Program-made: the position numbers and the translations under genes
Assembly (NCBI GenBank): GCA_963597235.1
Contig: CAVBPN010000129.1
Location: 21,534-85,533, forward strand
DNA length: 64,000 nt
Direction of reading: 5' to 3'
DNA from: a bacterium
GTDB taxonomy: Bacteria > Bacillota > Clostridia > Lachnospirales > Lachnospiraceae
The notes under the pieces: generated by a model
Told to the model about the DNA's origin: nothing
Databases searched by the model: none
Seen by the model: the letters and a program-made list of their open reading frames with translations, nothing else
Part shown: positions 38,656 to 55,254 of the stretch, piece after piece
How positions within the stretch are numbered: the first letter of the stretch is position 1
How the letters are laid out: every line of letters begins with the position of its first letter

Positions 38656-39536
38656 TACTGCTGCACCTCCTGTTTACTCATTGTCTTAACAATAAATACG
38701 CCGATAATCGCAGTGATGATCAGAAGGATCGTATTTAATGCAGAAGACATTCCATACTGTCCTCTGGAGTAGAGCTGGAATGCATAAGTTGTAAGAACTT
38801 CTGTTGCATGTCCAGGACCACCGTTTGTAAGAACATAAACAATATCAAATACTTTCAGACCATATGTAATACCAAATACCAGGTTGATCATGATAGAACC
38901 TGTCAGCATCGGAAGTGTTACATAGCGAAGTCTCTGCCAGAAGTTTGCACCATCAATCTGTGCTGCTTCATAATAAGATTTCGGGATGGTATTCAGACCT
39001 GCCAGGAAAATCGTCATGACATAACCAATACCTCTCCAGGCATCCACACCATAAATCGATTTCCATACAACTCCCAGATCAGAAAGCCATTTCTGTTTCA
39101 GGATTCCAAGATGCAGTGCATCCAGAATAGTATTCAGAAGACCTGTGTTGTAATTCAGGATAGATTTAAAGATCAGACCGATGATTACAAATGGAAGGAT
39201 AGATGGCAGATACAGTAAAGTTCTGTAAAGTCCTTTTCCACGTAAACCTTCCTGAAGCATGATCGCGATCATAAGTGCCGGGATCAGTTTGACAATATTA
39301 GAAATAATCGTAAATTTTAACGTATTTTCAATTCCACTTAAATAGCCTTTATTTGATGTAAAAATCTCTTTGAAGTTCTGCAGTCCTATAAAATGTGTAC
39401 CATTCAGAACGCTTCTGGAATTCCAGTCAGTAAAGGAATATCCAACGCCCATTGCACTCGGCAGAAGGAAAAAGATTACATACAGTGCCAGTGGTATAAT
39501 TACAAACCACCAGGGATATATTTTTTTCTTATTCAC
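38655..39536 (-). CDS. Sugar ABC transporter permease (MalF-like)
   Basis: 293 aa with YYEAAQIDGANFWQRLRYVTLP as the EAA loop. Confidence 0.85.
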   Translation of the reverse strand: MNKKKIYPWWFVIIPLALYVIFFLLPSAMGVGYSFTDWNSRSVLNGTHFIGLQNFKEIFTSNKGYLSGIENTLKFTIISNIVKLIPALMIAIMLQEGLRGKGLYRTLLYLPSILPFVIIGLIFKSILNYNTGLLNTILDALHLGILKQKWLSDLGVVWKSIYGVDAWRGIGYVMTIFLAGLNTIPKSYYEAAQIDGANFWQRLRYVTLPMLTGSIMINLVFGITYGLKVFDIVYVLTNGGPGHATEVLTTYAFQLYSRGQYGMSSALNTILLIITAIIGVFIVKTMSKQEVQQ

Positions 39537-39612: not shown

Positions 39613-40938
39613 TTATTTCCAGTTTTCGTCTGCAACAGTTTTTGCTGCTTCTGCACGGTTGGTATCCATGTTTGCAAGAACATCGTTTGCTTCCATTTCA
39701 CCCTGGCAGAATGCAATCATATCCTGTCCGAACTGCATCCAGTAGTCGTTTGTATATTTTGTACCATTCTGAAGTACAGATACATTCATTTTATCTTTGT
39801 CTACAGTCTCAAGGAATTCTTCCTCTTCCGGCAGCCAGTGCTGTTCAAGGTTTTCGTCGTTTACATCAAGGTTTGTGTAAGCCGGTGAGTTGTCAAGGAT
39901 TTCCTGAAGGCTTTCTGTTGTTGTTACAAAGTTGAAGAATTCTCTTACAAGGTCTTCATGTTCTGTTCCTTTGTATCCGAACATTGTCGGGCCAGCCGGG
40001 CTTGTCGGATACCATGTATTGTCACCAAGTGGAATCAGGAACATTCCGAATTCATCTTCTGTACCAGTATCTTCTTTGATCTGTTTAATGAAACTGGAGT
40101 TTGCCATTGCCATTGCACATGTTCTGTCACCATATTCGTTTGACATGTTTGTGCTGTCTGTTCCGATCCAGTCTTCTCCGAAGTATCCTGCATCAGAAAG
40201 TTCTTTGAACTCATTCAGTACTTCAAGCATTTTTTCGTTATCAGCAAATGTAGCCTGATTTGTATTCAGTGCATCATACAGTCCTGGTGTTGCTTCTTCG
40301 TAAACGCCACCGATCTGGAAGAATGCAAGCTGATGCTGCCATCCGTCTGCTCCTGGCATGAACCATGGTGTGATTCCTGTATCTGCAATCTTAGCGCAGA
40401 GATCTTTCAGTTCTGCATATGTAGTAGGAACTTCCCATCCGTTTTCTTCAAACAGAGTTTTGTTATAAACCATTACATACTCAGGGGAATTGTTCCATAC
40501 CTGAAGACCATATAATTTGTCATTGTATGTACAGGATGCTTTTCTTGTTTCCGGCATCAGATTTTCCCATTCAGCTCCTGTAAAGTCGATGCAATATTTT
40601 TCCGGATCAACGATGGTAGATTCGATTGCAAATGGATTGGACTGAATCCAGAAAACATCTGCACAGGAATCGGTTGCCAGTTTAGACTGAAGAAGATCAG
40701 AATACTGATCTGCCGGAATCGTCTGAAGATCAACAGTTACATCGTAAGTATCCTCGAAACGCTCCAGTGTTTCGTCATAACGGTTATCCATCCAGCCTGT
40801 GGAAACCAGAATACTTAATTCCTCTCCTGCAAAGTCTTTTGTGTTGTCATCCGCATAGACATTCACACTCATACCTGCTGTCATAGATGCAAGCATAGCT
40901 GCTGCACAAGTTACTGCCCATAATTTCTTTCTTTTCAT
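39613..40938 (-). CDS. Sugar ABC transporter substrate-binding protein (family 1), secreted
   Basis: 441 aa with a signal peptide, adjacent to two permease genes. Confidence 0.8.
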   Translation of the reverse strand: MKRKKLWAVTCAAAMLASMTAGMSVNVYADDNTKDFAGEELSILVSTGWMDNRYDETLERFEDTYDVTVDLQTIPADQYSDLLQSKLATDSCADVFWIQSNPFAIESTIVDPEKYCIDFTGAEWENLMPETRKASCTYNDKLYGLQVWNNSPEYVMVYNKTLFEENGWEVPTTYAELKDLCAKIADTGITPWFMPGADGWQHQLAFFQIGGVYEEATPGLYDALNTNQATFADNEKMLEVLNEFKELSDAGYFGEDWIGTDSTNMSNEYGDRTCAMAMANSSFIKQIKEDTGTEDEFGMFLIPLGDNTWYPTSPAGPTMFGYKGTEHEDLVREFFNFVTTTESLQEILDNSPAYTNLDVNDENLEQHWLPEEEEFLETVDKDKMNVSVLQNGTKYTNDYWMQFGQDMIAFCQGEMEANDVLANMDTNRAEAAKTVADENWK

Positions 40939-41170: not shown

Positions 41171-43021
41171 TTGATATGTTATTTACATATTAAAAATATG
41201 CAGGAGGTAGCAGATACGAAAACCCGAAGCCTTCAGTCAAAACTATTTATAGCTTACCTCGGTATGGCAAGCCTTATTCTTTTTGCCTTTGCAAGCTTTT
41301 TCTATCTTTTTGTATCGAGTCGTCTGAAAGAAAGCCAGATCAGTGCCATGAGTACACTGAACTCCAGCTTTAAATCACAGGTAGATTCCTCCATCGTGGA
41401 TCTGGATACCGTATCCGTAAACATCAACTACAGTAATATATCCAAAAGTATTCTCGACCAGAAATTTGAACTTAACATTTCTGATGATATGCTTTCTGAC
41501 ATGTCTGATCTTTTTATTTCTCTCAGTGGAACAGAATTAAAAGCAGATCAGGTAAATCTGTATGACTTTTCCGGGTATGTGCTCCAGGCAGGACTTTCCA
41601 CCATGGTCAAAAAGGCCGATGAATCCCGTTCAGACTGGCTGCAAAAGGCACTTGATGCCGATGGCAGAAAAGTACTTACACATCCTTATCTTACATATGA
41701 ATACTCCAAATCAGCAAAATATGCACAATGGATGATTTCCGACTATCGTTCCTTTACCAATCAGTATCGTCGAAAAGTTGGAGTCGTTGAAACTGTCAAG
41801 CAGTGCAAATCTGTTTTCAAAAGTATTATTTCTTATCGAAAACAGAATCATGATACTGCTGCCAGTGTCTATGTATTCAACCAGGATGGTGAACTGATCT
41901 ATCCATATGATATTTCAGAAGATGATGCTGTCGCGGTCAAACCATATTTTGATCTTACAGATGCCTCTCAGACTTCTGTAACCCTTACCAGTCCGTTAAA
42001 TGGACAAACAGAGTACGCCACACGAACAGATTCCAGTTATACCGGATATACTTATCTGACGATCCAGCCAGAATCCTTTATTCTCGAACCTGTTTACAAA
42101 ATGCTCCAGATTCTTCTGGCAGTGGTTGCAGCATTTCTTCTGGCTTCCATTCTTGTTTCTTACCGACTTTCCCGTTCTGTCGTAAAGCCGGTCAAACATC
42201 TGAAACACATCATCCAGAGAATGGAACTGGATACTCTCGGACAGGAAAAGGTCACTTCCTATCCTGTCTCTGTCAATGAACTTGAAGAACTTTACCAGGC
42301 TTTTCAGCTTATGAGTGAAAATCTCAAAAGTTCAATGCAGGAAGTCACAGAAGCAAAAGAGCAGGAAATACGAGCACGAAATATGGCCCTTCAGACACAG
42401 ATCAACCCACATTTTTATTACAACTCTCTGTCCAGTATCATGGTTCTTGCGGAAAACGATGATAATGATACAGTTGCAAAAATGTGCCGGAATCTCTCTC
42501 TGATCATGCGCTACATCACAGATACAAGCAGTACAACAGTCACTCTCGCGGATGAGCTGGATTACGTAAAAAAATATTTGTACTGCATGAAGGTACGTTA
42601 TCAGTCAAGTCTGAATTACAGCATAGATGTAGACGAAACACTTCTCACAGAGGAAGTCCCCAAGCTGCTGATCCAGCCGCTTGTCGAAAATGCAATCAAA
42701 TATGGCTTCGACTGTGCACCGCCATGGACGATCACTATACGCAGTGTCATTGCAGATAACTGCTGGAAAATCTCTGTCAGCGATACCGGTCCGGGATTTT
42801 CAGAAGAAGCCTGTGAGAAAATTGCGCAGAATCTCGCTAAAGCAGATCAGAATCCAGGACTTCCGGAGCTCCGGATCAATGGACTTGGAACCATAAATGT
42901 TTACTTAAGATGGAAAATCTTCTGTAAAGGAAATATTATTTTCGAATATGGAAATACCGAAGATGGACACGGAATCGTTTCCATAGGACGATACACATCA
43001 GCAGAAAAGAAATCAATTTAG
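41171..43021 (+). CDS. Sensor histidine kinase, YesM/LytS-type (2 TM, HAMP, His_kinase, HATPase)
   Basis: QINPHFYYNSLSSI is the His_kinase box and LIQPLVENAIKYG the N-box. The start is uncertain between 41171 and 41198. Confidence 0.85.
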   Translation: MICYLHIKNMQEVADTKTRSLQSKLFIAYLGMASLILFAFASFFYLFVSSRLKESQISAMSTLNSSFKSQVDSSIVDLDTVSVNINYSNISKSILDQKFELNISDDMLSDMSDLFISLSGTELKADQVNLYDFSGYVLQAGLSTMVKKADESRSDWLQKALDADGRKVLTHPYLTYEYSKSAKYAQWMISDYRSFTNQYRRKVGVVETVKQCKSVFKSIISYRKQNHDTAASVYVFNQDGELIYPYDISEDDAVAVKPYFDLTDASQTSVTLTSPLNGQTEYATRTDSSYTGYTYLTIQPESFILEPVYKMLQILLAVVAAFLLASILVSYRLSRSVVKPVKHLKHIIQRMELDTLGQEKVTSYPVSVNELEELYQAFQLMSENLKSSMQEVTEAKEQEIRARNMALQTQINPHFYYNSLSSIMVLAENDDNDTVAKMCRNLSLIMRYITDTSSTTVTLADELDYVKKYLYCMKVRYQSSLNYSIDVDETLLTEEVPKLLIQPLVENAIKYGFDCAPPWTITIRSVIADNCWKISVSDTGPGFSEEACEKIAQNLAKADQNPGLPELRINGLGTINVYLRWKIFCKGNIIFEYGNTEDGHGIVSIGRYTSAEKKSI

Positions 43022-43051: not shown

Positions 43052-43828
43052 ATGAATTATACAGTAATCGTTGCGGAGGACGAGGAACTGCTGTTAAACA
43101 ATCTGGTTCAAAAAGTCGGGAAAGCGGATCCGGACTTCCAGGTTGTAGGAACTGCCCAGACAGGTGACCAGGCACTTGCACTGGTAGAAAAACTGCATCC
43201 GGATCTGATCATCACAGATATCCGAATGCCGGTCATGGATGGAATTGCCCTGCTCACCAGAGTCAGAAGTCAGTTTCCTTTTATAAAATTTATCATCACC
43301 AGTGGATTTTCAGACTTTGAATATGCTAAAAAAGCAATCTCTCTGAAAGTATCTGATTATCTTCTGAAGCCAGTTGACCCGGATGAACTCCGGGAATCTC
43401 TTCAGAAAATCAAACGTGACTTTCAGATTTCTCAAAAAGACTATGAATCTGTATTCAATGCAGGCACTGCTTCAAAGACACCGTCTCAGATTGCTTCGAT
43501 CCTGAAGGATTTTATCGTAAAAAATTACAGCGATGATATCAATCTGAATCTGATTGCAGACAACATGAACTACAGTCCAAGCTACCTGACTAAGATCTTC
43601 TGTCAGGCCTATGACTGTACCCCTACGAAATATCTTCTGAATCTGAGAATGGACCAGGCGCAGAAACTGTTAATCCATGAACCATCACTTTCCATACGAC
43701 AGATTGGCGAAATGTGCGGCTATCATGATCAGGGGTATTTCAGCCGTATCTTTAAGAAGCAGACGGGGCGAAGTCCCCTTGAATTTCGTGGTGAAAATGA
43801 TGACCTTCTAACTGATATCGAAAACTGA
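43052..43828 (+). CDS. Response regulator with AraC-type HTH output (YesN-like)
   Basis: Receiver domain (VIVAEDEELL..., LIITDIRMPVMDG) plus an AraC C-terminus (GYHDQGYFSRIFKKQTGRSPLEFR). Confidence 0.9.
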   Translation: MNYTVIVAEDEELLLNNLVQKVGKADPDFQVVGTAQTGDQALALVEKLHPDLIITDIRMPVMDGIALLTRVRSQFPFIKFIITSGFSDFEYAKKAISLKVSDYLLKPVDPDELRESLQKIKRDFQISQKDYESVFNAGTASKTPSQIASILKDFIVKNYSDDINLNLIADNMNYSPSYLTKIFCQAYDCTPTKYLLNLRMDQAQKLLIHEPSLSIRQIGEMCGYHDQGYFSRIFKKQTGRSPLEFRGENDDLLTDIEN

Positions 43829-43945: not shown

Positions 43946-46318
43946 TTATTTTTCAATAACCACTGTTTCATAAGAAATATCTTCCATGCCTTCAAAGCTT
44001 CCCTGTCTTTCTTCTACAGTCAGTTCACCTTTCTGGTCATTCCAGATCAGTTTCGTGGTTGCGTATGCACCCTTCTCAAAGTTATAGTTATTTCCCTCAT
44101 CTTCATAAAGAGTAAACTCTGCATCTGCTCCCGGGTAAACCATCAGTTTCACTGGTCCTTCCGGTTTCTGAGATGCATAAGTAAGTCCGTCTGCAACCGG
44201 AAGAATGCTTCCTGCTTTTACAAAGATCGGCATCTGGTCGATCGGAGCATCTACCGTTACATACTGACCGCCTTCATATTTCTTGCCGGTCCAGTAATCA
44301 TACCAGTCAGCTCCCTGCGGGAGATAGCATTCCCATGTTTTTTCACGGTCAAGTTCTGTGCTTTCCGGACCATAGTACATTGGCTCTGTAACTGCACAGA
44401 TCAGAAGTGACGGTCCGAACATAAACTCATTTTCAATCTTTCTTGCAATCTTATCCTGCGGGAAATCAAACAGAAGACTTCTCATGATCGTATAATCATT
44501 AAAGTGAACAGCTCCTGCAAGAGAATAGATATACGGCATCAGATGGTATCTCAGCTTAATAGATTTCTCAATTGCATCATAGAACATCGTTCCTTTATCA
44601 CCGAAATTCCAGATCTCTCTCGGAGTATCTGTTCCGTGAGAACGGAACATCGGAAGGAAAGTTCCCATCTCAAGCCATCTGGTATAAAGTTCGCAGTAGC
44701 CTTTGTCCTTCACACCTTCATTGTACTTACCCTGCCAGAACCACTTCGGTTCCGGATCTGTATTGCAGCCACAGCCACGATTCTGCCATTTATCAGCTAC
44801 TGTAAAGAATGCACCAATATCCAGTGTCCAGTATGGATAACCACTCAGTCCCATATTCAGACCTTCTACGATCTGAATCTTGAAGTTGTCCCAGGAAGCG
44901 CAGGTATCACCGGACCACAGCATTGCTGCATATTTCTGTCCGGATGCATAACCGGAACGGGTCAGGTTGAGAACACGTTTGTCTTCAGTATCTTTTCTCT
45001 GGTTTTCATAAATGCCCTTTGCATGCATCAGCGCAAACGCATTGGCAACAGCCGGATCCAGGTATTTCTTGTGCTCGCCGCCGACAAGTTCATATCTCTC
45101 CCATGGCTCTCTCTTCACGCCGCCATTCCAGTCTGGACCAGAGAAAGGCTCTGTGGAATCACACCACCAGGATTCGAATCCTTCATCAAAAAGTCCCTCT
45201 TTTGCCTGTTTCCAGTACATTTCGCGGGCTTTTTCATCAAAAGCATTATAGGTTGCATAATCATAAAGAAGATAACCTGCGTCAAAAAATTCCTGATGGT
45301 TTTTACCGCCTGCATTCATGTTCGGCCATACAGAAACCATGCTGTGTGCATGCATTTTGTTGATTTCTTCCATGCATTCTTTGTTGTCACCGTAGCGTTC
45401 TTTATCGAGGATCTTTTCTCCCCAGTTGCCTGGTTCCCAGGTATTCCAGTCCTGAACGACACAATCGATTGGAACACCGATCTCTCTGTAATGACGCACG
45501 ATCTCTGCCAGTTCTTTTGCTGTATAATACTGCTCTTTGGACTGGATGTAGCCATACGCCCACTTCGGTAGCATCTGCGCTTTACCTGTCAGATAACGGT
45601 AGTCATGAATGATTCCATCCATTGTATTTCCACCGAGGAAATAATAATCAATCTGGTCTACCGTATCCAGGAACAGATAGGATTCTCTGCCCTCATCATT
45701 GAACGTCATCAGTGAACAGCAGTCAAACAGAACTCCATAACCTTCAGTAGATACGAACATCGGCATCGGGATACGCATATTATGCTGATACAGATACTGT
45801 GTATGTTTACGATAATCATAAATACCTTCTTCTGCCTGTCCCAGTCCGTGAATTTCTTCATCTTCTTTCCAGTCAAAGAAAACTCTTGCACGGTATCCGT
45901 CTCTGACTTTTTCTGCTTTGAGGTTCTGGATAAAGTTTCTCTCACCATCTACTGTCTTTACACGATTGATGATCGGTTTTTCGCCGCCTGTATTATAGTG
46001 TACGACATCAATCCTGGTGAGATTCGCTTTGTTCTGTTCCATCCACACGCTTCCGTCTGCATGTTTCCAGGTAATACCACCTGTTTTGAGATTTAATTCA
46101 GCCTGCACTGCAGATGTTTTTACTGTGACTGCTCCGTCTGCTTCTGCAGCTTCAAATGGAACCTGCGGATATTCTTTTTTCTCAATGATCAGAGATTCCT
46201 GCTCTGTCTTTACTTCATCTTTTGCGATCACGCAACGGATGATCTCTTCTGTTATCGGTATCAGGCGGTACTTCATACCTGCTGCAGAAGTTTCTACATA
46301 TCTTTCCGTTCTTTTCAT
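43946..46318 (-). CDS. Glycoside hydrolase family 31 (alpha-xylosidase/alpha-glucosidase-like)
   Basis: 790 aa. KWAYGYIQSKEQY, PIDCVVQDWNTW, SWWCDSTEP (nucleophile region) and MFRSHG fit GH31. Confidence 0.85.
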   Translation of the reverse strand: MKRTERYVETSAAGMKYRLIPITEEIIRCVIAKDEVKTEQESLIIEKKEYPQVPFEAAEADGAVTVKTSAVQAELNLKTGGITWKHADGSVWMEQNKANLTRIDVVHYNTGGEKPIINRVKTVDGERNFIQNLKAEKVRDGYRARVFFDWKEDEEIHGLGQAEEGIYDYRKHTQYLYQHNMRIPMPMFVSTEGYGVLFDCCSLMTFNDEGRESYLFLDTVDQIDYYFLGGNTMDGIIHDYRYLTGKAQMLPKWAYGYIQSKEQYYTAKELAEIVRHYREIGVPIDCVVQDWNTWEPGNWGEKILDKERYGDNKECMEEINKMHAHSMVSVWPNMNAGGKNHQEFFDAGYLLYDYATYNAFDEKAREMYWKQAKEGLFDEGFESWWCDSTEPFSGPDWNGGVKREPWERYELVGGEHKKYLDPAVANAFALMHAKGIYENQRKDTEDKRVLNLTRSGYASGQKYAAMLWSGDTCASWDNFKIQIVEGLNMGLSGYPYWTLDIGAFFTVADKWQNRGCGCNTDPEPKWFWQGKYNEGVKDKGYCELYTRWLEMGTFLPMFRSHGTDTPREIWNFGDKGTMFYDAIEKSIKLRYHLMPYIYSLAGAVHFNDYTIMRSLLFDFPQDKIARKIENEFMFGPSLLICAVTEPMYYGPESTELDREKTWECYLPQGADWYDYWTGKKYEGGQYVTVDAPIDQMPIFVKAGSILPVADGLTYASQKPEGPVKLMVYPGADAEFTLYEDEGNNYNFEKGAYATTKLIWNDQKGELTVEERQGSFEGMEDISYETVVIEK

Positions 46319-46393: not shown

Positions 46394-46417
46394 AAAATAT
46401 CATGCCAGAATAACATT

Positions 46418-46444
46418 GTTACTGTTCACCCCGTTCACAGCAAC
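46418..46444. repeat. 27-bp conserved non-coding element, copy 2 (GTTACTGTTCACCCCGTTCACAGCAAC)
   Basis: See copy 1 at 32891-32917. The mismatches fall in the spacer and in one dyad position. Confidence 0.6.
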
Positions 46445-46506
46445 TTTGTCTTTTTATCCTAACATGACATTCCTTCTATGGTCTATGACATATCTGATTC
46501 TGAATT

Positions 46507-47376
46507 TTAACTATTTTTACTTTTCTCGTCTTTTGGTGTTTTTCCGACATGTTTTTTATATAACCGGTAAAAATTAGAGATATTATTAAATCCACATTCC
46601 ATCGCAATATCGGTCACATTCAGTTTACCTTCTCTCAGCAGTTCCCTTGCATGATTAATACGCATTCTGGTCACATAATCGCTGAAACTGATATTCGTGA
46701 CCTTTCGAAAATAGGAAGAAAAATAATTCGAACTCATATATACCGATGCAGCCACATCTTCCAGTGTAATTTTCTCGCAATAATGTGTATCAATGTAAGC
46801 AAACGCCTGCTCCAGGCGCTTCATGGCCGTCTTCTTTTCTTTCAGCATTTCATCCGATTTTGATTCATCCTGATAAGTCCGGATCAGCATAGTCAGAATG
46901 CGGAGAACATTAGCCTTGATCATCAGCTGATAGCCCTCTTTACGTCCCTGCCATTCTTTATAAATTTCCTGAATACCGGAACGGATTTCCGGATTAATCT
47001 CATCTTCTCTTCCAATACGGTTCTTGAAATTACTTCCACGCTCTACAAAAGGCTTCAGATATCTGGTATCAAAAACACTGATCTTCTCTGCCACAAATTC
47101 CGGAGAGAAAATCATTACGAGTAGTTTCATGTCATCCCCGATCAGATTCCATCCATGAGGCTCTACATTATTAAAGATGATCACATCATCCTTTTCCATC
47201 GTATATTCCTGTCCATTAACGAAGTAACTCCCCTTACCTTCCAGTACACATGTAATTTCAAAATAACTGTGCCAGTGCCAGGTTCCCGGCTTACTGTTCT
47301 CCGGTGTCAGTCGCACCTCTGCAATCTGAAAAGGGAACTCTTTATCAAGTGGAATATTGTCTCGTTCAAGTCTCAT
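46507..47376 (-). CDS. AraC family transcriptional regulator (cupin sensor + HTH)
   Basis: The start is set at the ATG at 47376 after AGGAGG. Cupin-like N-terminus (WHWHSYFEI) and AraC C-terminus (ECGFNNISNFYRLYKKHVGKTP). Confidence 0.9.
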   Translation of the reverse strand: MRLERDNIPLDKEFPFQIAEVRLTPENSKPGTWHWHSYFEITCVLEGKGSYFVNGQEYTMEKDDVIIFNNVEPHGWNLIGDDMKLLVMIFSPEFVAEKISVFDTRYLKPFVERGSNFKNRIGREDEINPEIRSGIQEIYKEWQGRKEGYQLMIKANVLRILTMLIRTYQDESKSDEMLKEKKTAMKRLEQAFAYIDTHYCEKITLEDVAASVYMSSNYFSSYFRKVTNISFSDYVTRMRINHARELLREGKLNVTDIAMECGFNNISNFYRLYKKHVGKTPKDEKSKNS

Positions 47377-47507
47377 GCTCTGCCTCCTGTCTCCGCATAC
47401 AGATGACATATCTTTTTATCTGCCCTGCAATACAGACAGTATAGCAGATTTCATTTTGGTTCGCAAACCAGCTTCGACGCTCTAGAAAAAGCTCTGTCTG
47501 TTTACCG

Positions 47508-47547
47508 GCAAAAAGAAGCCGCCAGGTCGTGACATTACCTGACGGCT
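47508..47547 (-). terminator. Intrinsic terminator after the 942-aa methyltransferase gene
   Basis: On the minus strand GCCGTCAGGT...ACCTGGCGGC forms a 10-bp stem with one G-U pair, followed by TTCTTTTTGCC. Confidence 0.65.
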
Positions 47548-47591
47548 CCCGTTTATTTGAATTTGGGATTCAACGTATTAATATAAGATTT

Positions 47592-50420
47592 TTATCTGCC
47601 AAGAGATTCTACATAAGTTCCTTTTACATCGCTCCAGTTCTTATCTGCATAATCAAGAAGATATGCAGCCTGCTCCAGAGACATTTCCGGGAACAGAAGG
47701 AATAAGCTGTGAGAACCATATTTCTTAACAATACGGTCTACATTCTTGATCCAGTCTTCGAACTCTCCTGAGTAAACTTTTACCCAGATGGATTTTCCTG
47801 CTGCAATTGCTTTGTCGTAGATCACATCCCAGTCCGGAAGTGTTCCGTCCGGGCCTGCATCTCCACTTGTCCACTGCAGAGCGTCAATTCCATCAATTTC
47901 CATCAGTGCATCCATGTGTTTGATCGCAGCCGGTCCATCAAGATGATACAGGACATGGTCTACTTTTTCACTCTGTTCACGTAAGGATGGCTGAATGTAT
48001 TTTCTGAAGTCTTCCGGTGACATCATTGCAGAGAAGTCGCACTGTAATTTTACAGTTCTTCCAGGTCCCCAGATCTGGAATACAGTGTAAGCATTTCCAC
48101 CTTCTTCGTCTTTGATGATATCATAGAAGCGGTCATAGTATTCATAGTAAACATCCGTTACTTCCTGGATTCTCTCACCAATCATATCCGGCTCATCCAG
48201 CAGGTCAAACAGGATATCCTGTGCACCGCGGAGGGAAGCAAGTACGTCGATGTTTTCCATAAGGTCAGGCATATCTACAACAAAATCGTCTCCTGCCAGT
48301 TCCTTACAGTCTTTTGCAAGCTGAATGTGTTTTTTGAACCATTTGTTTTCCGAGTCAAAAGTAAGTTTCGGTACACCTTCCCAGCTGTCCAGGCATTTGT
48401 TGAACCATACAGTATCTTCTTTAAATCCGATCTCAGATCCGAGGTAAGATGCTACAGATCCAGGACCAAAGTCGATGTTCAGGTTCGGGAAACTCTCTCC
48501 AAGGAATGCATGTGTATCACAGAAGTAACGATAACGATCTACGATTCTCTGTGCATTCTGGTATTTGTCTTCCATGTCTTTCCATTTCAGTTCTTCCGGC
48601 ATGTTGTAATATTTACCCTGGCAGATCTGATCCAGATAGCCACCCTCAACAGGTGTTCCATCTGAGTACTGCTCTACTTCCGGTCTTCTGGCGATAACAC
48701 ACATCAGCGGTCTTCCGGTGTTTTTGTGCTGCCAGTAATTAGTAAATTTTTCTTTGGTTGTTTCCCAGTTAAGCTTGTAGCCTTCTCCCGGTTTCGGAAG
48801 CTGAATCTTGCTTAAATCTACGGAACCTTTTTCAAATTTAGGTGTTTCAGAAACTTTTTCTTCTGCCTTTGGAGCTTCTTCTTTAATTTCTTCCTGTACC
48901 GGTTCTGCACCTTCTACCGGAAGATCATCAAATTCACCGGCGGCTGCTTTTGCACAGAATCCAGATTCAGCATATTTTTTAGCCTGCTCTGCTGCGGAAG
49001 CTGCATCTTCTGTATAAGCATCTGCACCGATTTCATCAGCAAATTCCTGGCTGATCGGAGCACCACCAACCATGATCTTAATACGATTACGGAATGGCTG
49101 TTTCAGAAGTGCTGCAACTGTATCTCTCAGAGACGGCATTGTTGTTGTAAGAAGTGCTGAAAGAGCTACAATACTTGCTTCTTTATGTGCATTTACTTCA
49201 TCAATGAATGTCTGAATCGGTACATCAACACCAAGGTCGATAACTTCGAATCCGGCACTCTCAAACATCATACCGACAAGGTTTTTACCGATATCGTGAA
49301 GGTCACCTGCTACAGTACCAAGGATAATGGTTCCTGCGCTTCCTGCTTCACCTGTTGCAAGATATGGTTTCAGGACATCCACGCCGACTTTCATAGCACG
49401 TGCTGCTGCAAGCATCTGTGGAACGAAGATGATCTCTTTCTTGAAGTTATCACCTACGACAGCCATAGCTCCGATCATTGCGTCATTTAAGATAGCAGTC
49501 GGGTCACAGCCTGCATCAAGTGCTTCCTGAACAGCCTGTCCGATTTCTTTATTCTTTCCATCCTGAGTTAATTTAAATACTTTCTGCATCTTCTCATCGA
49601 GTGGAGAAGCCGGTGCAGGCTGTACTTCTTCAGCGGCTTTATTTCCAAATTTATCAATATACTGCAGGCAGTATTCATCACGCTCTAACAGTGCATTTGT
49701 TGCATAGATCATACCGATCATGTTCTTATTGGTCGGGTCAACGATTGCACTGTCCATACCAGCATTCATAGCCAGTACCATAAATGCCTGGTTGATATTT
49801 TTTCTGGCAGGCAGACCGAAAGAAATATTAGAAAGTCCACTTGTGATGTGGATTTCCGGATATTCGGATTTGATTCTTCTACAGCAGTCTGCAAATACAG
49901 TCAATGCAGTCTGATCTGTTCCCAAAGTTACAACCAGTGGGTCAATGTGTAAACGGCTTGGTGCAATGCCGTACTGTTTTGCTTTTTCCATAATTCCGAA
50001 GAAAATCTTCATACGGCGTTCTACGGAATCCGGGATACCATCGTTATCGCACAGAAGTGCTACGCATTCCCAGTCTGTGTCCGCAATTACCGGGAAAATG
50101 GTATCAATTTTATCACCTTCAAGAGATACAGAGTTGATAAGACCTGGTCTCTTGCAGAATGGGATTGCTGCTACACAGGATTTCGCACTCGGGCTGTCTA
50201 CACAGATCGGTGTATCAGTCACTTCCTGTACAAGATCAATCATCCATTTCAGTGTTTCTACTTCTACGTCCTCTTCTACAGACGCACATACATCCAGAAA
50301 TGTGGCACCCGCTTCTGCCTGCATTCTGGCTCTTTCTCTGATCAGGTCCGCGTCCCTCTCAGCGATTGCCTTGGCAACTGACGGAATGGATCCGTTCAGT
50401 TTTTCTCCTATTATAATCAT
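47592..50420 (-). CDS. Tri-domain corrinoid-dependent methyltransferase: pterin-binding (methyl-THF) domain + B12-binding domain + ~395-aa C-terminal domain (URO-D-like?)
   Basis: Uninterrupted 942-aa ORF. aa 1-265 carry IIGEKLNG, FLDVCAS, LINSVSLEG, HIDPLV and GLSNISFGLP. aa 275-495 carry GDLHDIGKN (nt 49284-49307), SALLTTT and MVGGAP. An acidic linker follows, then the C-terminal domain (nt 47595-48776). Confidence 0.8.
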   Translation of the reverse strand: MIIIGEKLNGSIPSVAKAIAERDADLIRERARMQAEAGATFLDVCASVEEDVEVETLKWMIDLVQEVTDTPICVDSPSAKSCVAAIPFCKRPGLINSVSLEGDKIDTIFPVIADTDWECVALLCDNDGIPDSVERRMKIFFGIMEKAKQYGIAPSRLHIDPLVVTLGTDQTALTVFADCCRRIKSEYPEIHITSGLSNISFGLPARKNINQAFMVLAMNAGMDSAIVDPTNKNMIGMIYATNALLERDEYCLQYIDKFGNKAAEEVQPAPASPLDEKMQKVFKLTQDGKNKEIGQAVQEALDAGCDPTAILNDAMIGAMAVVGDNFKKEIIFVPQMLAAARAMKVGVDVLKPYLATGEAGSAGTIILGTVAGDLHDIGKNLVGMMFESAGFEVIDLGVDVPIQTFIDEVNAHKEASIVALSALLTTTMPSLRDTVAALLKQPFRNRIKIMVGGAPISQEFADEIGADAYTEDAASAAEQAKKYAESGFCAKAAAGEFDDLPVEGAEPVQEEIKEEAPKAEEKVSETPKFEKGSVDLSKIQLPKPGEGYKLNWETTKEKFTNYWQHKNTGRPLMCVIARRPEVEQYSDGTPVEGGYLDQICQGKYYNMPEELKWKDMEDKYQNAQRIVDRYRYFCDTHAFLGESFPNLNIDFGPGSVASYLGSEIGFKEDTVWFNKCLDSWEGVPKLTFDSENKWFKKHIQLAKDCKELAGDDFVVDMPDLMENIDVLASLRGAQDILFDLLDEPDMIGERIQEVTDVYYEYYDRFYDIIKDEEGGNAYTVFQIWGPGRTVKLQCDFSAMMSPEDFRKYIQPSLREQSEKVDHVLYHLDGPAAIKHMDALMEIDGIDALQWTSGDAGPDGTLPDWDVIYDKAIAAGKSIWVKVYSGEFEDWIKNVDRIVKKYGSHSLFLLFPEMSLEQAAYLLDYADKNWSDVKGTYVESLGR

Positions 50421-50657
50421 TTCGTTCCCTCCTGCTTATAGCAACAACTATAATTTTTGCTTTTCCTCCGATAAGTTTTTTCCGCAAAATCCTTATCTGT
50501 TAATGCTATTCTATATCAAAGAAGAGTAGATCTGCGTCTGTTATTTTCCGATTCGTATATACTATCTTACTGTGATTTTATATTTTGTTACATCCATTCT
50601 CTCTATATATTGTATTTCATTCTTTGCAATGCTATATTGACTGTAAGAAAAAATCAT

Positions 50658-50678
50658 CCGGAATTTCAAAAATTCCGG
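50658..50678. promoter_or_regulatory. 21-bp palindrome CCGGAATTT-CAA-AAATTCCGG just upstream of the RACo-like gene
   Basis: 9-bp perfect arms ending 18 nt before the ATG at 50696. Confidence 0.5.
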
Positions 50679-50695
50679 CAGAAGGGATTCTTCAA

Positions 50696-52156
50696 ATGAA
50701 CACATATCGCATCACAATTTTGCCAGATCAGCAGGTCATCCAGGCCAATGAAGGCGAAAATCTGCTTCAGGTCCTGCAGAAAAACAAGCTGGCTCCGGAT
50801 GCCCCCTGCGGCGGTAATGGAACCTGCGGCAAATGTACAGTTTATATCGATGAAAAAAAGGCGCTTGCTTGTCAGACAGTAATTCACCGTAACATGTCTG
50901 TACGTATCCCTGAAAAAAATAAGCTCCAGATACTGACTCATGGAATTACTGAAAAAATTCAGCCTGATGGCCGCGACCATTATGTACTGGCATATGATAT
51001 CGGAACCACAACGGTTGTCTGTTATCTCCTGGATGGTACCTCCGGCAGGGAACTTGCTGAAGAAAGTATACTAAATCCTCAAACTTCATACGGTGCTGAT
51101 GTGATTTCCAGAATCAAATATGTTCTGCGTAACAAAACTTCTGAACTTCAGGACTGTATCCGTCATACACTTTCAGAACTTGCTGATATTGTATCCGCCA
51201 GAGCAGGGATTTCTCCGACTGAGATCACACTTGCCTGTATCGTAGGCAACACCGCCATGCATCATCTTTTTCTCGGGATCGATCCTGCACCGCTGACCGT
51301 ACCGCCTTATATGCCAAAGGTATCCAATGCACTGGAGATTCCTGCCGCCCCGCTGCTTTCTATTCATCCTGAAGGAAAACTACGGATTCTTCCAAATATT
51401 GCAGGCTTTGTCGGTGCAGATACAGTAGCATGTATGATTTCTACTCATTTCGACCAGCTCAATGAACTGACACTTATGATCGATATTGGAACAAATGGAG
51501 AAATGGTTCTTGGCTATCAACATCGCAGAATTGCCTGTTCCACTGCTGCCGGTCCGGCTTTTGAAGGTGCAAAGATTTCCTGTGGTATGCGCGGAGTCAC
51601 AGGTGCTGTCGATCACGTTTCCGTAAAAAATGGAAACATCTGCTTTCACACCATCGGCGATACAGAACCTGAAGGACTTTGTGGATCCGGACTATTAGAC
51701 CTGACTGCAGCTCTTCTGGATACCGGATTTCTAAGCGAAGCCGGACTGATGCAAAAACACGAATATCAGCTTGGTACTTCTTCTGTCTCCTTGACACAAA
51801 AAGATATTTCTGAGATTCAGTTTGCCAAATCTGCAATCCGCTCCGGCATTGAACTTCTCGTCAGACAAATGCAGGTATCTGTCAGTGACATCCGTAAAGT
51901 TTATCTTGCCGGAGCTTTTGGAAACTATCTGACTCCAGCTTCTGCCTGTCGGATTGGTATGATTCCGCCTGTACTGCTCGACCGCATAGAAGCTGTCGGA
52001 AACGCCGCCGGAGAAGGTGCAAAGCTTTGTGCCCTGAACCGACGAGAATTTGCTTACAGCCAAATGCTTGCTGCAAAAACAGAATTTCTGGAACTAGCAT
52101 CCTGTCCGGAATTTCAGGACTGCTATATTGATCATTTAATGTTTGAGGGAGAATAG
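50696..52156 (+). CDS. Corrinoid reductive activator (RACo/AcsV-like: 2Fe-2S ferredoxin + ASKHA ATPase, DUF4445)
   Basis: The start is set at the ATG at 50696 after GAAGGGA. PCGGNGTCGKCTV...ACQT is a plant-type 2Fe-2S motif. DIGTTTVV and DIGTNGE are ASKHA phosphate motifs. Confidence 0.8.
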   Translation: MNTYRITILPDQQVIQANEGENLLQVLQKNKLAPDAPCGGNGTCGKCTVYIDEKKALACQTVIHRNMSVRIPEKNKLQILTHGITEKIQPDGRDHYVLAYDIGTTTVVCYLLDGTSGRELAEESILNPQTSYGADVISRIKYVLRNKTSELQDCIRHTLSELADIVSARAGISPTEITLACIVGNTAMHHLFLGIDPAPLTVPPYMPKVSNALEIPAAPLLSIHPEGKLRILPNIAGFVGADTVACMISTHFDQLNELTLMIDIGTNGEMVLGYQHRRIACSTAAGPAFEGAKISCGMRGVTGAVDHVSVKNGNICFHTIGDTEPEGLCGSGLLDLTAALLDTGFLSEAGLMQKHEYQLGTSSVSLTQKDISEIQFAKSAIRSGIELLVRQMQVSVSDIRKVYLAGAFGNYLTPASACRIGMIPPVLLDRIEAVGNAAGEGAKLCALNRREFAYSQMLAAKTEFLELASCPEFQDCYIDHLMFEGE

Positions 52157-52161
52157 CCGAT

Positions 52162-52707
52162 ATGAATTACAAAGAACTGAGAGAACTTGCGCTGAATACA
52201 GGCTTTACCCATACAGTGCCACTGGATATCTCGACGATTGAACTGAAACAGGAAGTCCGCGATATGTGTAAGCAGGGATGTCAGCAATACGCAAAACGCT
52301 GGAGCTGCCCTCCCGGATGTGGCTCCCTGGAACAGCTCCGTTCAGACATTTTGCAGTACCAAGGGGGAATTCTCGTCCAGACGACAGCAAAACTGGAAGA
52401 TTCCTTTGACTGGGATGGCATGATGAAAACACAGTCACAGCATCAGGAGAACTTTGTCCGATTTGTCGAGAAACTTCACAGCTCTGATGCCCATTTTCTG
52501 CCTCTCGGTACCGGTTGCTGCATAATCTGTGAAAGCTGTTCCTACCCGGACTCCCCCTGCCGCTTTCCTCAGAAAAAAATCTCCTCTATGGAAGCCTGCG
52601 GCATGCTTGTTTCAGAAGTCTGTCAGAAAAATGATCTGAAATATTATTATGGTCCAAACACGATATCCTATGTAGCAGGCGTACTTTTTACGGATTTTTC
52701 ATTATAA
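52162..52707 (+). CDS. DUF2284 family Cys-rich metal-binding protein
   Basis: 181 aa. CKQGCQQYAKRWSCPPGC and CCIICESCSYPDSPC match my recollection of DUF2284 proteins, which accompany corrinoid methyltransferase loci. Confidence 0.65.
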   Translation: MNYKELRELALNTGFTHTVPLDISTIELKQEVRDMCKQGCQQYAKRWSCPPGCGSLEQLRSDILQYQGGILVQTTAKLEDSFDWDGMMKTQSQHQENFVRFVEKLHSSDAHFLPLGTGCCIICESCSYPDSPCRFPQKKISSMEACGMLVSEVCQKNDLKYYYGPNTISYVAGVLFTDFSL

Positions 52708-52778
52708 AGTCCAGGCAGTATCCTGTGTTTTTTCTATAGGACAAATCCTTTAATATGGTAAAATATTAAATTTTTTCA

Positions 52779-52807
52779 TTGACAGTGCATTTTCCCGATG
52801 ATAGAAT
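52779..52807 (+). promoter_or_regulatory. Near-consensus sigma-A promoter for the amino-acid ABC operon
   Basis: TTGACA (52779-52784), a 17-nt spacer, then TAGAAT (52802-52807). Confidence 0.6.
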
Positions 52808-52888
52808 TGAAAAAAGTGACGAAGGCGTCAGTTTTTTTGTAAACTGCGCCTTTTTTCATTATTAAATCGAAAAAGGAGAGCTTCTATC

Positions 52889-53737: not shown

Positions 53738-53837
53738 TTTTAAAGCTCAGTTCTTATCAGACATACCACTTAAAACACTACACGAATCTCAGAGCTGCTG
53801 CATTTTGTGGCAGCTTTGCTTTTGAAAGGAGTTTTCC

Positions 53838-55242: not shown

Positions 55243-55254
55243 ATAAAGATAAGT

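Follow-up and report, generated by a model that had tools for sequence, protein, structure and literature searches.

The gene at the centre of this analysis lies on the minus strand (47592..50420) of the window, a 64,000-nt stretch of a Lachnospiraceae contig, and encodes in one uninterrupted ORF a protein of 942 aa with the order MeTr, B12 cap, B12 Rossmann domain, linker and a C-terminal domain, here called X. Read directly from the window, the ORF starts with ATG and has no internal stops, and a strong ribosome-binding site, AGGAGGG (50427..50433, minus strand), precedes the ATG by 6 nt. Some NCBI annotations start at the internal Met278, upstream of which there is only a weak GAGAAG.

The N-terminal domain (aa 1-265; 49626..50420, minus strand) is a methyl-THF:corrinoid methyltransferase (MT-II) with a pterin-binding barrel. 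In profile searches it matched NF005719, the model for this activity, with 348.8 bits (cutoff 259) and PF00809 with 74 bits. Among solved structures it is closest to the Desulfitobacterium hafniense O-demethylase MT-II (4O0Q/4O1E, E 4e-95), with MetH (E 3e-46) and AcsE (E 5e-40) well behind, and it has the GLSNISFG motif including its Asn. The corrinoid-binding module (aa 284-482; 48975..49571, minus strand) consists of a four-helix cap (PF02607, aa 284-351, 60 bits) and a Rossmann domain (PF02310, aa 364-476, 87 bits), matches TIGR02370 with 199.6 bits and carries the motifs DLHDIG (DxHxxG), SALL (SxL) and VGG (GG). Its PDB relatives are 1Y80, MttC (7xcn), MtmC (3ezx) and the O-demethylase corrinoid protein 4JGI. 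An acidic, flexible linker rich in Pro, Lys and Glu follows (aa 496-548; 48777..48935, minus strand). Its length varies between species, with a spacer of ~50-106 aa between the B12 and X matches across loci, and it is hypervariable compared to the domains, which are 93-95% identical; its dN/dS is 0.24-0.59. Domain X occupies the remaining 394 aa (aa 549-942; 47595..48776, minus strand).

Divergent from the fusion gene is a RACo-type reductive activator (50696..52156, plus strand) with 2Fe-2S, middle and ASKHA ATPase parts, which matched Fer2, PF14574 (RACo_C_ter, 232 bits), PF17651 (Raco_middle, 171 bits) and PF00111 (31 bits). Related contigs call a RACo gene of 486 aa; a TTG at 50585, offered by a mechanical ORF listing, is not a likely start. 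Five nucleotides after RACo lies a gene for a Cys-rich DUF2284 protein of unknown function (52162..52707, plus strand; PF10050, 167 bits), for which we found no solved homologue and, in the open-access literature searched, no functional study. Of the 12 loci with a RACo homologue, 10 have a DUF2284 homologue next to it.

On the other side, directly downstream of the fusion gene, an AraC-family regulator with a cupin sugar-sensor-type domain (46507..47409, minus strand; PF12833, PF00165, PF02311, PF07883) is followed by a GH31 glycoside hydrolase (43946..46318, minus strand; PF01055, 269 bits), whose best solved relatives are all α-xylosidases (BoGH31A, E 1e-137; CjXyl31A, E 2e-129; 7kmp, E 5e-127). 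Pfam searches further identified an AraC-type response regulator (43052..43828, plus strand) and a histidine kinase (41171..43021, plus strand), both of sugar-locus type, and a CUT1-type sugar ABC importer with an SBP_bac_1 protein (39613..40938, minus strand) and two permeases (38655..39536 and 37834..38655, minus strand). The binding protein is only distantly related to solved oligosaccharide binders, and there are no fucose- or xylose-catabolic genes beside the fusion locus in the window.

A first-pass annotation, made from sequence alone, had described an uninterrupted, modular 942-aa ORF with pterin-binding signatures (FLDVCAS, LINSVSLEG, HIDPLV, GLSNISFGLP), a B12 cap and Rossmann domain (GDLHDIGKN, SALLTTT, MVGGAP) and an acidic linker, its activation apparently being outsourced to the divergent RACo gene, which is followed by DUF2284. 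All of this held: the motifs and linker are in the translation, and profile matches support both modules and the activator. The C-terminal patterns it had listed, GAQDILFDLLDEPDMIGERIQEVTD, LYHLDGP and GIDALQW, are present as well, and its uncertain assignment of this domain as a URO-D-fold methyltransferase is supported as far as the barrel is concerned (see below).

Continuity of the fusion gene

The exact 942-aa protein was recovered on a second, independent assembly (a Logan contig), and a 98%-identical cluster of 942 aa has 1498 members. More than 100 further variants of 943-994 aa, mostly 975 or 988 aa, are listed, and a few of these have names at NCBI (Blautia faecis, Blautia sp. Sow4_E7). 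Direct reading of species-representative genomes showed three-domain ORFs without stops, among others in the isolates Blautia faecis DFI.3.66, Blautia sp. MSJ-19, B. intestinihominis, B. schinkii DSM 10518, B. glucerasea and B. caecimuris. The ORF is continuous in hundreds of assemblies, in isolates from six or more Blautia species as well as in Robinsoniella, and a survey found the same domain order in many Blautia, in Robinsoniella and in uncultured Clostridia. The fusion is not described in the open-access literature we searched.

The exceptions are few. In one MAG (L001) a single inserted nucleotide where the linker ends splits the gene into parts of 550 and 370 aa, and two scaffolds have 100-N gaps within the gene, in or beside the linker-coding part; both are minority or assembly states. 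On one contig, X is joined to unrelated DNA. In NCBI annotations, some orthologues appear as proteins of 660-671 or 407 aa, and these short calls fall inside continuous ORFs (L034, L019). With a dN/dS of 0.02-0.05 in each, all three domains are under strong purifying selection, and the continuity of the fusion is not an accident of assembly.

Domain X: family, fold and fusions

Profile searches assigned domain X to no Pfam or NCBIfam family, and it matched no family of non-methyltransferases. Against the Pfam URO-D family (PF01208) it scored 11.4 bits, below the gathering score of 23.9, but weak PF01208 matches occur in 14 of 45 members of its own family, and hhalign comparisons with PF01208-positive neighbours gave probabilities of 64-93%. 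Its similarity to CdmB, the one solved MT-I of the O-demethylase clade, is marginal (E=2), and MtaB, the methanol MT-I of a different family, gave no match. An AlphaFold2 model of X (pLDDT 91.2, pTM 0.90) had MtaA as top match in Foldseek (4ay7, E 4e-8, TM 0.69 normalised to the target), followed by UroD decarboxylases and then by MetE. At the level of this predicted model, X has a URO-D-type barrel closest to MtaA.

The unnamed X family comprises 2072 clusters at 50% identity. Invariant within it are W563, W672, D795, H826, D828 and G829, and Q793 and W850 are nearly so. It has neither an invariant Cys nor the H-x-C...C zinc motif, with H-x-D in place of the latter. We infer that the invariant His-x-Asp, Asp and Trp residues may form an ether-activating and sugar-binding site.

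Distant relatives, ~37% identical in X, carry this domain at the N-terminus and are independently fused to B12 domains, in orders unlike that of our fusion: one (P0309) consists of X, cap and B12 domain, another (P0302) of X, a homocysteine S-methyltransferase, cap and B12 domain. Since the homocysteine domain of P0302 is an acceptor module, X would be the donor-side module. The repeated fusions thus mark X as a putative corrinoid-dependent module on the methyl-donor side, and we propose that it is a substrate:corrinoid methyltransferase (MT-I); biochemical data are lacking for every member of the family.

The genomic neighbourhood of X

We counted neighbours in 80 species loci with X, fused or free. 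AraC orthologues lie next to X in 48 of these, and homologues of the binding protein, the permeases, the histidine kinase and the response regulator were found in 37, 31, 35 and 38, respectively, those of the importer mostly on the same strand. GH31 is near X in 37 loci, on the same strand in 33 of the 37 and with a median gap of 52 bp; of the 45 loci with full flanks, 28 have it. X relatives of 46-60% identity have full-length GH31 orthologues of 44-54% identity next to them, and the divergence of GH31 follows that of X over the range of 46-99% identity. In Bilifractor, the GH31-X pair stands alone amid housekeeping genes. One Blautia MAG (L084) has an unfused operon with the order permeases-GH31-X-DUF2284-RACo-UROD-MeTr-CP (corrinoid protein), where DUF2284 again adjoins RACo and both two-component genes are present; beside X, this locus and L092 also have PF01208 genes of the classical kind as separate genes. 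In addition, GH29 fucosidases, a fucose-isomerase-like gene and an apiosidase of GH140 type occur at distant X loci, the apiosidase being a marker of rhamnogalacturonan-II (RG-II).

The new finding is the company that X genes keep, whether they are fused or free: an orthologous α-xylosidase-like GH31, a regulator of the AraC family and an ABC transporter for sugars. The first-pass annotation had treated the AraC and GH31 genes as only a weak hint, which did not hold: across the X family, nothing is more conserved than this neighbourhood. Of the methylated plant glycosides or phenolics it had suggested, methylated sugars are favoured over methoxylated phenolics because the neighbourhood is a carbohydrate-uptake locus; the substrate has not been demonstrated.

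Proposed function and alternatives

On balance, and with moderate confidence, we favour the view that the 942-aa protein is a self-contained corrinoid-dependent demethylase that transfers the methyl group of a carbohydrate methyl ether to THF. The analysis shows what the domains are, which fold X has, that X has repeatedly been fused to corrinoid domains, that the synteny is conserved and that selection is purifying; which way the methyl group flows, that the substrate is a sugar and which sugar it is are all inferred. In the proposed mechanism, X would bind the methylated substrate and offer its methyl group to the Co(I) corrinoid of the central B12 module, which the long linker would allow to swing; the methyl-Co(III) form would then dock onto the N-terminal barrel and methylate tetrahydrofolate, and the methyl-THF may feed the C1/acetogenic metabolism of Blautia. 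Accidental oxidation of the cofactor to Co(II) would be repaired by the separately encoded RACo in an ATP-dependent manner, with DUF2284 as a putative RACo accessory of unknown role.

The presence of X in a sugar-uptake locus and its pairing with an α-xylosidase-like GH31 across distant genomes point to a methyl-etherified sugar as the most likely substrate, which would be taken up in oligosaccharide form. Foremost among the candidates is 2-O-methyl-D-xylose from the RG-II disaccharide 2-O-Me-Xyl-α1,3-Fuc, whose α-xyloside GH31 would cleave before or after demethylation. Pointers to RG-II are the α-xylosidase-like GH31 and the GH29, fucose-isomerase-like and GH140-type genes of distant loci. 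According to the literature, the 2-O-methyl-xylose of RG-II is left unused by Bacteroides and secreted, B. thetaiotaomicron releasing 2-O-Me-Xyl-α1,3-Fuc and 2-O-Me-Fuc.

Several observations speak against this reading. We found no precedent for the proposed chemistry, since known MT-I enzymes act on phenolates, halides or amines, all of them far better leaving groups than the alkoxide of an aliphatic sugar. RACo lies within 8 kb in only 11 of 44 fused loci, about a quarter, for most free-standing X genes no corrinoid protein is encoded within this distance, and one X relative of 41% identity sits in an operon that resembles the sulfoquinovose transketolase pathway and has no corrinoid genes. 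The sub-threshold URO-D score, the E-value to CdmB and the absence of fucose- and xylose-catabolic genes next to the window locus also count against it. As for RG-II, GH31 α-xylosidases classically act on xyloglucan, which has no methyl groups, and the mix of GH29, GH42 and GH31 in one locus (L095) would fit xyloglucan side chains as well.

All three parts of a B12 methyl-transfer system are united in one uncharacterised protein of gut Blautia. If the demethylase reading is correct, this would be an anaerobic, methyl-conserving counterpart of oxidative sugar demethylation; we found no known anaerobic enzyme for demethylating such sugars. In marine porphyran degraders, 6-O-methyl-D-galactose is demethylated by an aerobic cytochrome P450. 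This enzyme likewise enables glycan catabolism by removing a sugar methyl ether and is encoded in a polysaccharide-utilisation locus, yet it belongs to an unrelated protein family, depends on O2 and releases formaldehyde.

Among well-known natural enzymes, MetH alone combines the modules for both half-reactions with the B12 module in a single chain. The first-pass annotation had noted its different domain order, which understated the relationship: aa 2-522 of the fusion are colinear with Fol-Cap-Cob of MetH (TIGR02082 positions 344-891), and both proteins have a swinging B12 domain serving two barrels. In contrast to MetH, the fusion has neither a homocysteine domain (PF02574) nor an AdoMet reactivation domain, reaches 239 bits against the MetH profile (cutoff 1011), carries its second barrel, of URO-D type, at the C-terminus in the place of the MetH activation domain, leaves reactivation to a separate RACo and would probably run towards methyl-THF.

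Among the alternatives, an aryl methyl-ether O-demethylase like Odm, Vdm, Mtv and Mto survives best, though we consider it unlikely. GH31 would here deglycosylate a methoxylated plant phenolic glycoside and X demethylate the aromatic aglycone. In its favour, the closest relative of the MT-II domain is from an O-demethylase, corrinoid-dependent O-demethylation of methoxylated aromatics is known from Blautia strains (PMC9602652), O-demethylase MT-I enzymes share the URO-D fold (PMC13222342) and aryl ethers are chemically easy substrates. The systems of Acetobacterium dehalogenans (Odm/Vdm), D. hafniense (4JGI, 4O1E) and archaea (Mto) also comprise the same four functions, a URO-D-fold MT-I, a cap and Rossmann corrinoid protein, a pterin-binding MT-II and an ATP-dependent, RACo-type activator. 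However, their three catalytic parts are separate, whereas here they form one chain (MT-II - CP - MT-I); X is no member of PF01208 and shows hardly any similarity to CdmB; and aromatic-compound loci are replaced by one whose conserved partners are an oligosaccharide importer and GH31, with fucosidase, apiosidase and fucose-isomerase-like genes at distant loci. Plant phenolic glycosides are rarely α-D-xylosides or α-D-glucosides, and the classical PF01208 genes beside X in L084 and L092 suggest a different role for X.

Very unlikely is an acceptor-side role of X like that of MtaA or MetE, by which a MetH-like synthase would pass the methyl group of methyl-THF to a thiol or some other nucleophile. 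MtaA, structurally the best match of X, is indeed a methyl-cobalamin:CoM methyltransferase, MetE is also among the matches, Fol-Cap-Cob is colinear with MetH, and the MeTr reaction is reversible. Like the MtaA group of methanogens (MtaA/MtbA/MtsA and the Mts-type CP-MT2 fusions, URO-D family), X uses the C-terminal strand ends of its barrel, and its YHLDG is the equivalent of their H-x-C-G at a β-strand end. Yet identity is ~13%, the zinc-thiolate ligands are missing, P0302 would senselessly hold two acceptor modules and no donor, and a catabolic sugar locus with an AraC regulator suits breakdown rather than biosynthesis.

We give equally little credence to a small C1 donor, for example a halomethane or the methanol set free from pectin methyl esters, that merely accompanies plant glycan breakdown, with the GH31 neighbourhood reflecting co-regulation and no shared substrate. 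Pectin degradation does yield methanol, and the chloromethane enzyme CdmB (PDB 9rui; Nat Commun 2026, PMC13222342), a metal-free URO-D-fold MT-I with a separate corrinoid protein and a pterin-binding MT-II, has reported homologues in Blautia and Robinsoniella. Against this, the two-gene GH31-X unit persists and co-diverges, X sits between GH31 and sugar permeases in one operon, it conserves Asp, His and Trp where CdmB has hydrophobic channels for haloalkanes, and it does not match MtaB.

The weakest alternative, that the ORF is an artefact of misassembly or frameshift-corrected read-through and the true genes are separate, can cite the split MAG gene, the N-gaps, the chimeric contig and the short NCBI annotations, but is practically ruled out by the independent assembly, the 1498 cluster members, the isolate genomes, the strong ribosome-binding site at the true start, the purifying selection on all domains and the position of the short calls within continuous ORFs.

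A single reading frame for three domains

The fusion gene (47592-50420, minus strand) is one open reading frame of 942 codons without any internal stop; a canonical ribosome-binding site, AGGAGGG, precedes its ATG (50420) by 6 nt. The identical 942-residue sequence is present in a second, independent public assembly, and at 98% identity its cluster comprises 1498 member sequences. Over 100 orthologue variants of 943-994 residues, mostly 975 or 988, are listed, a few of them NCBI-named (e.g. Blautia faecis, Blautia sp. Sow4_E7). A survey of species-representative genomes for the same three-domain order found it as a stop-free reading frame in 44 of 80 loci; isolates that carry it include B. faecis, B. 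intestinihominis, Blautia sp. MSJ-19, B. schinkii, B. glucerasea, B. caecimuris and Robinsoniella peoriensis. The first-pass annotation, made from the sequence alone, had described the gene as uninterrupted and modular and had quoted a set of peptide motifs. The absence of stops, the independent assembly and the 44 loci bear out the former, and every quoted motif was found in the translation.

In comparisons with three Blautia species, all three domains gave a dN/dS of 0.02-0.05; the linker, which is hypervariable in sequence and differs in length between loci, gave 0.24-0.59. In a neighbor-joining tree of the C-terminal domain X (residues 549-942), the fused forms essentially group into a single clade, indicating one main fusion event. 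Where the reading frame is broken, the cause appears to be an error or a minority state, as seems likely for a metagenome-assembled genome (locus L001) in which one inserted nucleotide at the linker's end (~5880) splits the gene into parts of 550 and 370 residues, and for the scaffolds of loci L002 and L004, which have 100-N gaps within the fusion gene, in or beside its linker-coding part. A free-standing X at 97% identity in locus L003 was rejected as a real variant; it ends in an abrupt junction at 5245 with an unrelated Bmp gene and is probably chimeric. With its 1-nt indel, N gaps and Bmp junction, the linker-coding stretch and its surroundings form a hotspot of assembly trouble and variation.

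Database naming of X and of the fusion orthologues amounts to systematic mis-annotation, as seen when we compared the public annotations of orthologues (representatives P0005, P0007, P0009-P0011, P0013, P0023 and P0028). Several three-domain reading frames are annotated by NCBI from an internal methionine, as “corrinoid protein” or “cobalamin-dependent protein”, and JGI names some “methionine synthase”. Free X proteins are called “trimethylamine corrinoid protein 2” by NCBI, yet have no B12-binding domain. We considered NCBI “proteins” of 660-671 residues (“corrinoid protein”) and 407 residues (“trimethylamine corrinoid protein 2”) as a separate architecture and rejected it, because they start at internal methionines inside continuous three-domain reading frames.

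Residues 1-265 match the methyl-THF:corrinoid methyltransferase (MT-II) model NF005719 with 348.8 bits against a cutoff of 259, and PF00809 with 74.4 bits against a threshold of 25.5. Their closest solved relative is the O-demethylase MT-II of Desulfitobacterium hafniense (4O0Q/4O1E, E 4e-95), with MetH (E 3e-46) and AcsE (E 5e-40) farther away, which fits a methyl flow from substrate to THF. A B12 cap (residues 284-351, PF02607, 60.1 bits) and a B12 Rossmann domain (residues 364-476, PF02310, 87.3 bits) follow, and the corrinoid motifs DxHxxG...SxL...GG are present as GDLHDIG, SALL and VGG. These profile searches uphold the pterin-binding module and the B12 cap and Rossmann domain proposed at first pass.

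The window protein shares the order Fol-Cap-Cob with MetH: TIGR02082 aligns residues 2-522 to model positions 344-891, and MetH structures align over residues 2-467. However, its score of 239.3 bits does not meet the MetH family cutoff of 1010.85, the N-terminal homocysteine domain of MetH, PF02574, was not found in it (E ≤ 0.01), the pterin-binding barrel comes first, and X occupies the C-terminus, where MetH has its AdoMet-binding reactivation domain. It is built like MetH minus the homocysteine and reactivation domains, with a putative substrate barrel at the C-terminal end.

Domain X and its association with corrinoid modules

Searches with residues 532-942 gave a sole Pfam match, the URO-D family PF01208, below threshold (11.4 bits against a gathering threshold of 23.9, E 0.16); no Pfam family of the MttB superfamily or the methanol methyltransferase MtaB was matched at E ≤ 10. 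NCBIfam had no match beyond residue 522, and a sequence-only comparison of residues 532-942 with the PDB yielded chance matches only, mostly antibody chains. An exhaustive HMMER search (E ≤ 1e-3) defines a family of 2072 clusters at 50% identity, most of them free-standing proteins of ~360 residues. Its profile has only marginal matches in the PDB, namely MetE (E 0.34) and the chloromethane methyltransferase CdmB of the clade that includes aryl O-demethylase substrate:corrinoid methyltransferases (MT-I) (9rui, E=2, 10.7 bits).

The AlphaFold2 model of X, built with 47 relatives, has a pLDDT of 91.2 and a pTM of 0.90. Its best Foldseek match in the PDB is MtaA, a methylcobamide:CoM methyltransferase (4ay7, E 4e-8, TM 0.60 query-normalised, 0.69 target-normalised), followed by uroporphyrinogen decarboxylases and, more weakly, MetE; twelve URO-D-family chains match at E<1e-3. 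In an alignment of 45 diverse members, PF01208 gives weak, sub-threshold matches in 14 (best E 3e-4), and hhalign comparisons of X with PF01208-positive neighbours reach probabilities of 64-93%, with YHTDG of one neighbour aligned with YHLDG of X. We therefore have little doubt that X is a divergent URO-D-fold barrel, as predicted by the model and the profile comparisons, which shares the (β/α)8 fold with PF01208 and by score, failing the gathering threshold, lies outside it. The earlier suggestion that the last ~395 residues resemble URO-D-fold methyltransferases thus held for the fold upon profile searches and structure prediction, without any Pfam family above threshold; catalysis is inferred only.

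Among the same 45 members, W563, W672, D795, H826, D828 and G829 are invariant and Q793 and W850 nearly so, and the family motifs are QCDFS, YHLDGP and QW. The invariant residues lie at or just past the C-terminal ends of successive β-strands in the model. The zinc ligands H-x-C...C of the zinc-dependent methylcobamide:thiol methyltransferases MtaA and MtbA were not found in these members, which have H-x-D instead, within YHLDG; the cysteine of QCDFS is replaced in some.

At least three architectures join X to a B12 module. Besides the window protein, these are the representatives P0309 (615 residues), with an N-terminal X followed by cap and B12 domain, and P0302 (995 residues), in which X is followed by a homocysteine S-methyltransferase domain (PF02574) and then by cap and B12 domain; in both, X is ~37% identical to the window X. 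That X has been fused independently and in different orders is strong Rosetta-stone evidence for its working on the corrinoid domain, and since the other barrel in P0302 can only accept methyl groups, X must be the module that supplies them. X is therefore likely an MT-I barrel acting with a corrinoid module, although the fusions show association and catalysis is inferred. For most X genes that stand free, no corrinoid protein is encoded within 8 kb, which fits this role poorly. P0302 would be a methionine synthase supplied by the substrate of X rather than by methyl-THF. In another representative, P0298, a DUF362 domain follows X.

The window protein itself is very probably a single-chain corrinoid methyltransferase, with the methyl transfer from substrate via Co(I) to THF being inferred. 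It would be a naturally occurring MT-II - corrinoid - MT-I enzyme in one chain, abundant in human-gut Blautia, and a compact model for one B12 domain moving between two barrels; for biocatalysis, fusions of this type have been engineered so as to improve cobalamin-dependent demethylation (PMC9930637). Because the ~2000 clusters of X have no Pfam model and carry misleading names, a large set of corrinoid-dependent enzymes would be invisible to annotation.

The conserved GH31 and sugar neighbourhood of X

Our main new finding is that X resides in a conserved GH31/sugar neighbourhood, a pairing that extends far beyond Blautia. In the window, the fusion gene is followed on its own strand by an AraC regulator (46507-47409, minus strand) and a GH31 hydrolase (43946-46318, minus strand). 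The first-pass annotation had pointed to them and to the sugar ABC genes as neighbours; this held, and the genes proved to be conserved with X. We mapped the window proteins onto 80 species loci, clustering all open reading frames, and found near X orthologues of AraC in 48 loci and of GH31 in 37, and homologues of the response regulator in 38, of the sugar-binding protein (SBP_bac_1) in 37, of the histidine kinase in 35 and of an ABC permease in 31. GH31 and X are co-stranded in 33 of the 37 GH31-bearing loci, the median gap being 52 bp, and where flanks are complete, GH31 accompanies 18 of 28 fused and 10 of 17 free-standing forms.

The GH31s are orthologous from end to end, and their divergence parallels that of X (identities to the window GH31 are 54%, 46% and 45%). 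In Bilifractor, where X is 60% identical, a two-gene unit of GH31 and X stands alone between housekeeping genes. An X relative at 59% has GH31, a GH140-type apiosidase, a GH29 fucosidase and GH42 as neighbours, and around one at 46% the order is LacI, fucose-isomerase-like, GH31, URO-D, GH29 fucosidase, GH4, URO-D, X, AraC. The unfused counterpart of the window locus is a co-directional operon in a Blautia metagenome-assembled genome (L084, X 67%), consisting, in this order, of two permeases, GH31, X, DUF2284, a reductive activator (RACo), a classical PF01208 protein, MT-II and a corrinoid protein, which links GH31 with the methyl-transfer system, RACo and DUF2284.

Classical PF01208 genes recur with X in sugar loci (L084 11813-12859; L092 2790-3878 and 6795-7943; L087 3612-4622), and at least one of the proteins has a YHTDG motif resembling YHLDG of X. 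They may be sister methyltransferases for a second methylated sugar, e.g. 2-O-methyl-fucose.

The best solved relatives of the window GH31 are all α-xylosidases (BoGH31A, E 1e-137; CjXyl31A, E 2e-129; 7kmp, E 5e-127); MeXyl31 matches with E 5e-70 and glucosidases with E 1e-42 or weaker. It is thus probably α-xylosidase-like, its specificity being inferred from these relatives. The importer of the locus is of the CUT1 oligosaccharide type; for its binding protein, no informative solved relative was found. One methyl-bearing α-xyloside known from dietary plant cell walls is 2-O-methyl-D-xylose, α-1,3-linked to fucose in chain A of rhamnogalacturonan-II (RG-II). GH141 of B. thetaiotaomicron releases the disaccharide 2-O-Me-Xyl-α1,3-Fuc (PMC10154630); according to the RG-II literature, this bacterium secretes it along with 2-O-Me-Fuc and has no known pathway for either, and what becomes of the methylated remnants that Bacteroides leaves behind is open. 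The fucosidase, fucose-isomerase-like and apiosidase genes of distant X loci fit RG-II fragments, a hypothesis that rests on context.

Two alternatives concern the substrate of the glycosidases. Xyloglucan side chains would account for GH31, GH29 and GH42 as well, but they are unmethylated and so offer a methyltransferase nothing to work on. GH31 as a sulfoquinovosidase was considered on account of a distant X homologue in a sulfo-transketolase-like operon and rejected, as α-xylosidases are the best relatives. That operon (L090/L091, 1-10228; X 41% identical) comprises GH31, DUF4867, TauE, a binding protein, two permeases, a split transketolase, RpiB, X and Fe-ADH, resembling the sulfoquinovose sulfo-transketolase pathway; it has no corrinoid gene nearby, a poor fit with the corrinoid reading of X.

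We lean, by a narrow margin, towards a fusion enzyme that acts on a carbohydrate-derived methyl ether, the substrate being inferred; that the sugar is 2-O-methyl-xylose is inferred from context and falls well short of an even bet. No more secure is a bolder reading, in which X would found a family of anaerobic corrinoid-dependent demethylases of aliphatic sugar methyl ethers, the Blautia locus with its GH31 would be the missing gut pathway for the RG-II remnant 2-O-methyl-xylose-α1,3-fucose, feeding the plant methyl group via methyl-THF into acetogenesis, and related URO-D-like genes might take 2-O-methyl-fucose. Should the substrate be a methylated sugar, the chemistry of corrinoid methyltransferases, which covers aryl ethers, amines, thiols, methanol and halomethanes, would come to include carbohydrate methyl ethers. 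If the RG-II reading is true, the locus would tie dietary pectin to acetogen C1 metabolism and gut B12 demand; it makes the fate of the RG-II remnants testable. In the literature searched, no paper tied GH31, methyl sugars and corrinoid enzymes together, and none described the fusion.

The system would work like the O-demethylases of anaerobes (MT-I, corrinoid protein, MT-II and activator), with an MT-II, a corrinoid module, an MT-I-like barrel and RACo all present. The analysis shows the identities of the domains, the fold, the fusions, the synteny and the selection; all else in the following mechanism is inferred. After import, the α-xyloside of the oligosaccharide would be cut by GH31, ahead of or after demethylation. 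X would bind the methyl sugar, its conserved tryptophans stacking on the sugar and its invariant His-x-Asp/Asp set activating the ether oxygen through an acid or metal site; since sugar alkoxides leave poorly, the reaction requires some such activation. The methyl group would be attacked by Co(I) of the B12 module, and the flexible linker of 50-100 residues would let the methyl-Co(III) module reach the N-terminal barrel, where THF would be methylated. Stray Co(II) would be re-reduced by RACo with ATP; DUF2284 is given no role. A full-length AlphaFold2 model (15 sequences, ≥93% identical) was uninformative on domain docking (pLDDT 40, pTM 0.30). Taken together, the system unites a naturally occurring fusion of three modules with a new MT-I family and, probably, a new class of substrate.

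The RACo and DUF2284 genes and the edges of the locus

Divergent from the fusion gene lies the RACo-type activator (50696-52156, plus strand), with the domains Fer2, Raco_middle and RACo_C_ter (PF14574 232 bits, PF17651 171 bits, Fer2 31 bits); the DUF2284 gene (52162-52707, plus strand) starts 5 nt after it. Activation had been assigned at first pass to a separate RACo-type gene followed by DUF2284; Pfam upholds the gene identities, and the activating role is inferred. Of the 12 loci with a RACo homologue, 10 have a DUF2284 homologue next to it; for DUF2284 we found neither a solved relative nor functional literature. RACo is close to only about a quarter of the fused genes, a poor fit with its proposed part in the system, and among close relatives (L011-L014) RACo and DUF2284 are swapped while the fusion protein stays ~94% identical. 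The divergently oriented RACo of the window has 486 residues; those of the B. faecis group have 640-670, lie upstream on the same strand and are 42-50% identical to it, the DUF2284 proteins of that group being ~50% identical to that of the window.

The divergent intergenic region contains a hairpin with a 9-bp stem, CCGGAATTT...AAATTCCGG, followed by a T-run (50658-50678, minus strand), ~240 nt upstream of the fusion gene start. It matches no Rfam family and might serve as an operator or an attenuator. In window positions 37000-56000, no Rfam family rose above threshold; the lack of a cobalamin riboswitch among them fits a corrinoid system poorly. A promoter scan stayed at chance level. A sub-threshold match to Rfam sau-19 (37758-37823; 36 bits against a gathering threshold of 80), between a DnaJ-domain gene and the last permease, is most likely a mere terminator hairpin.

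Sister strains (L001, 7398-10247; L002, L003, L005, L007, L008, L014, L016) have a three-gene insert between the fusion gene and AraC that is absent in the window, encoding a 455-residue protein without a Pfam family, a class-V aminotransferase/cysteine-desulfurase-like protein and a 97-residue open reading frame; L004 has an IS605 OrfB/TnpB-type gene at the same spot. On the other side, the window continues after DUF2284 with a polar amino-acid ABC transporter (52889-55242, plus strand; SBP_bac_3, permease, ATPase), which is replaced by a BPD_transp_2-type ABC system in the sister contigs L001 and L002, indicating that the conserved locus ends right after DUF2284.
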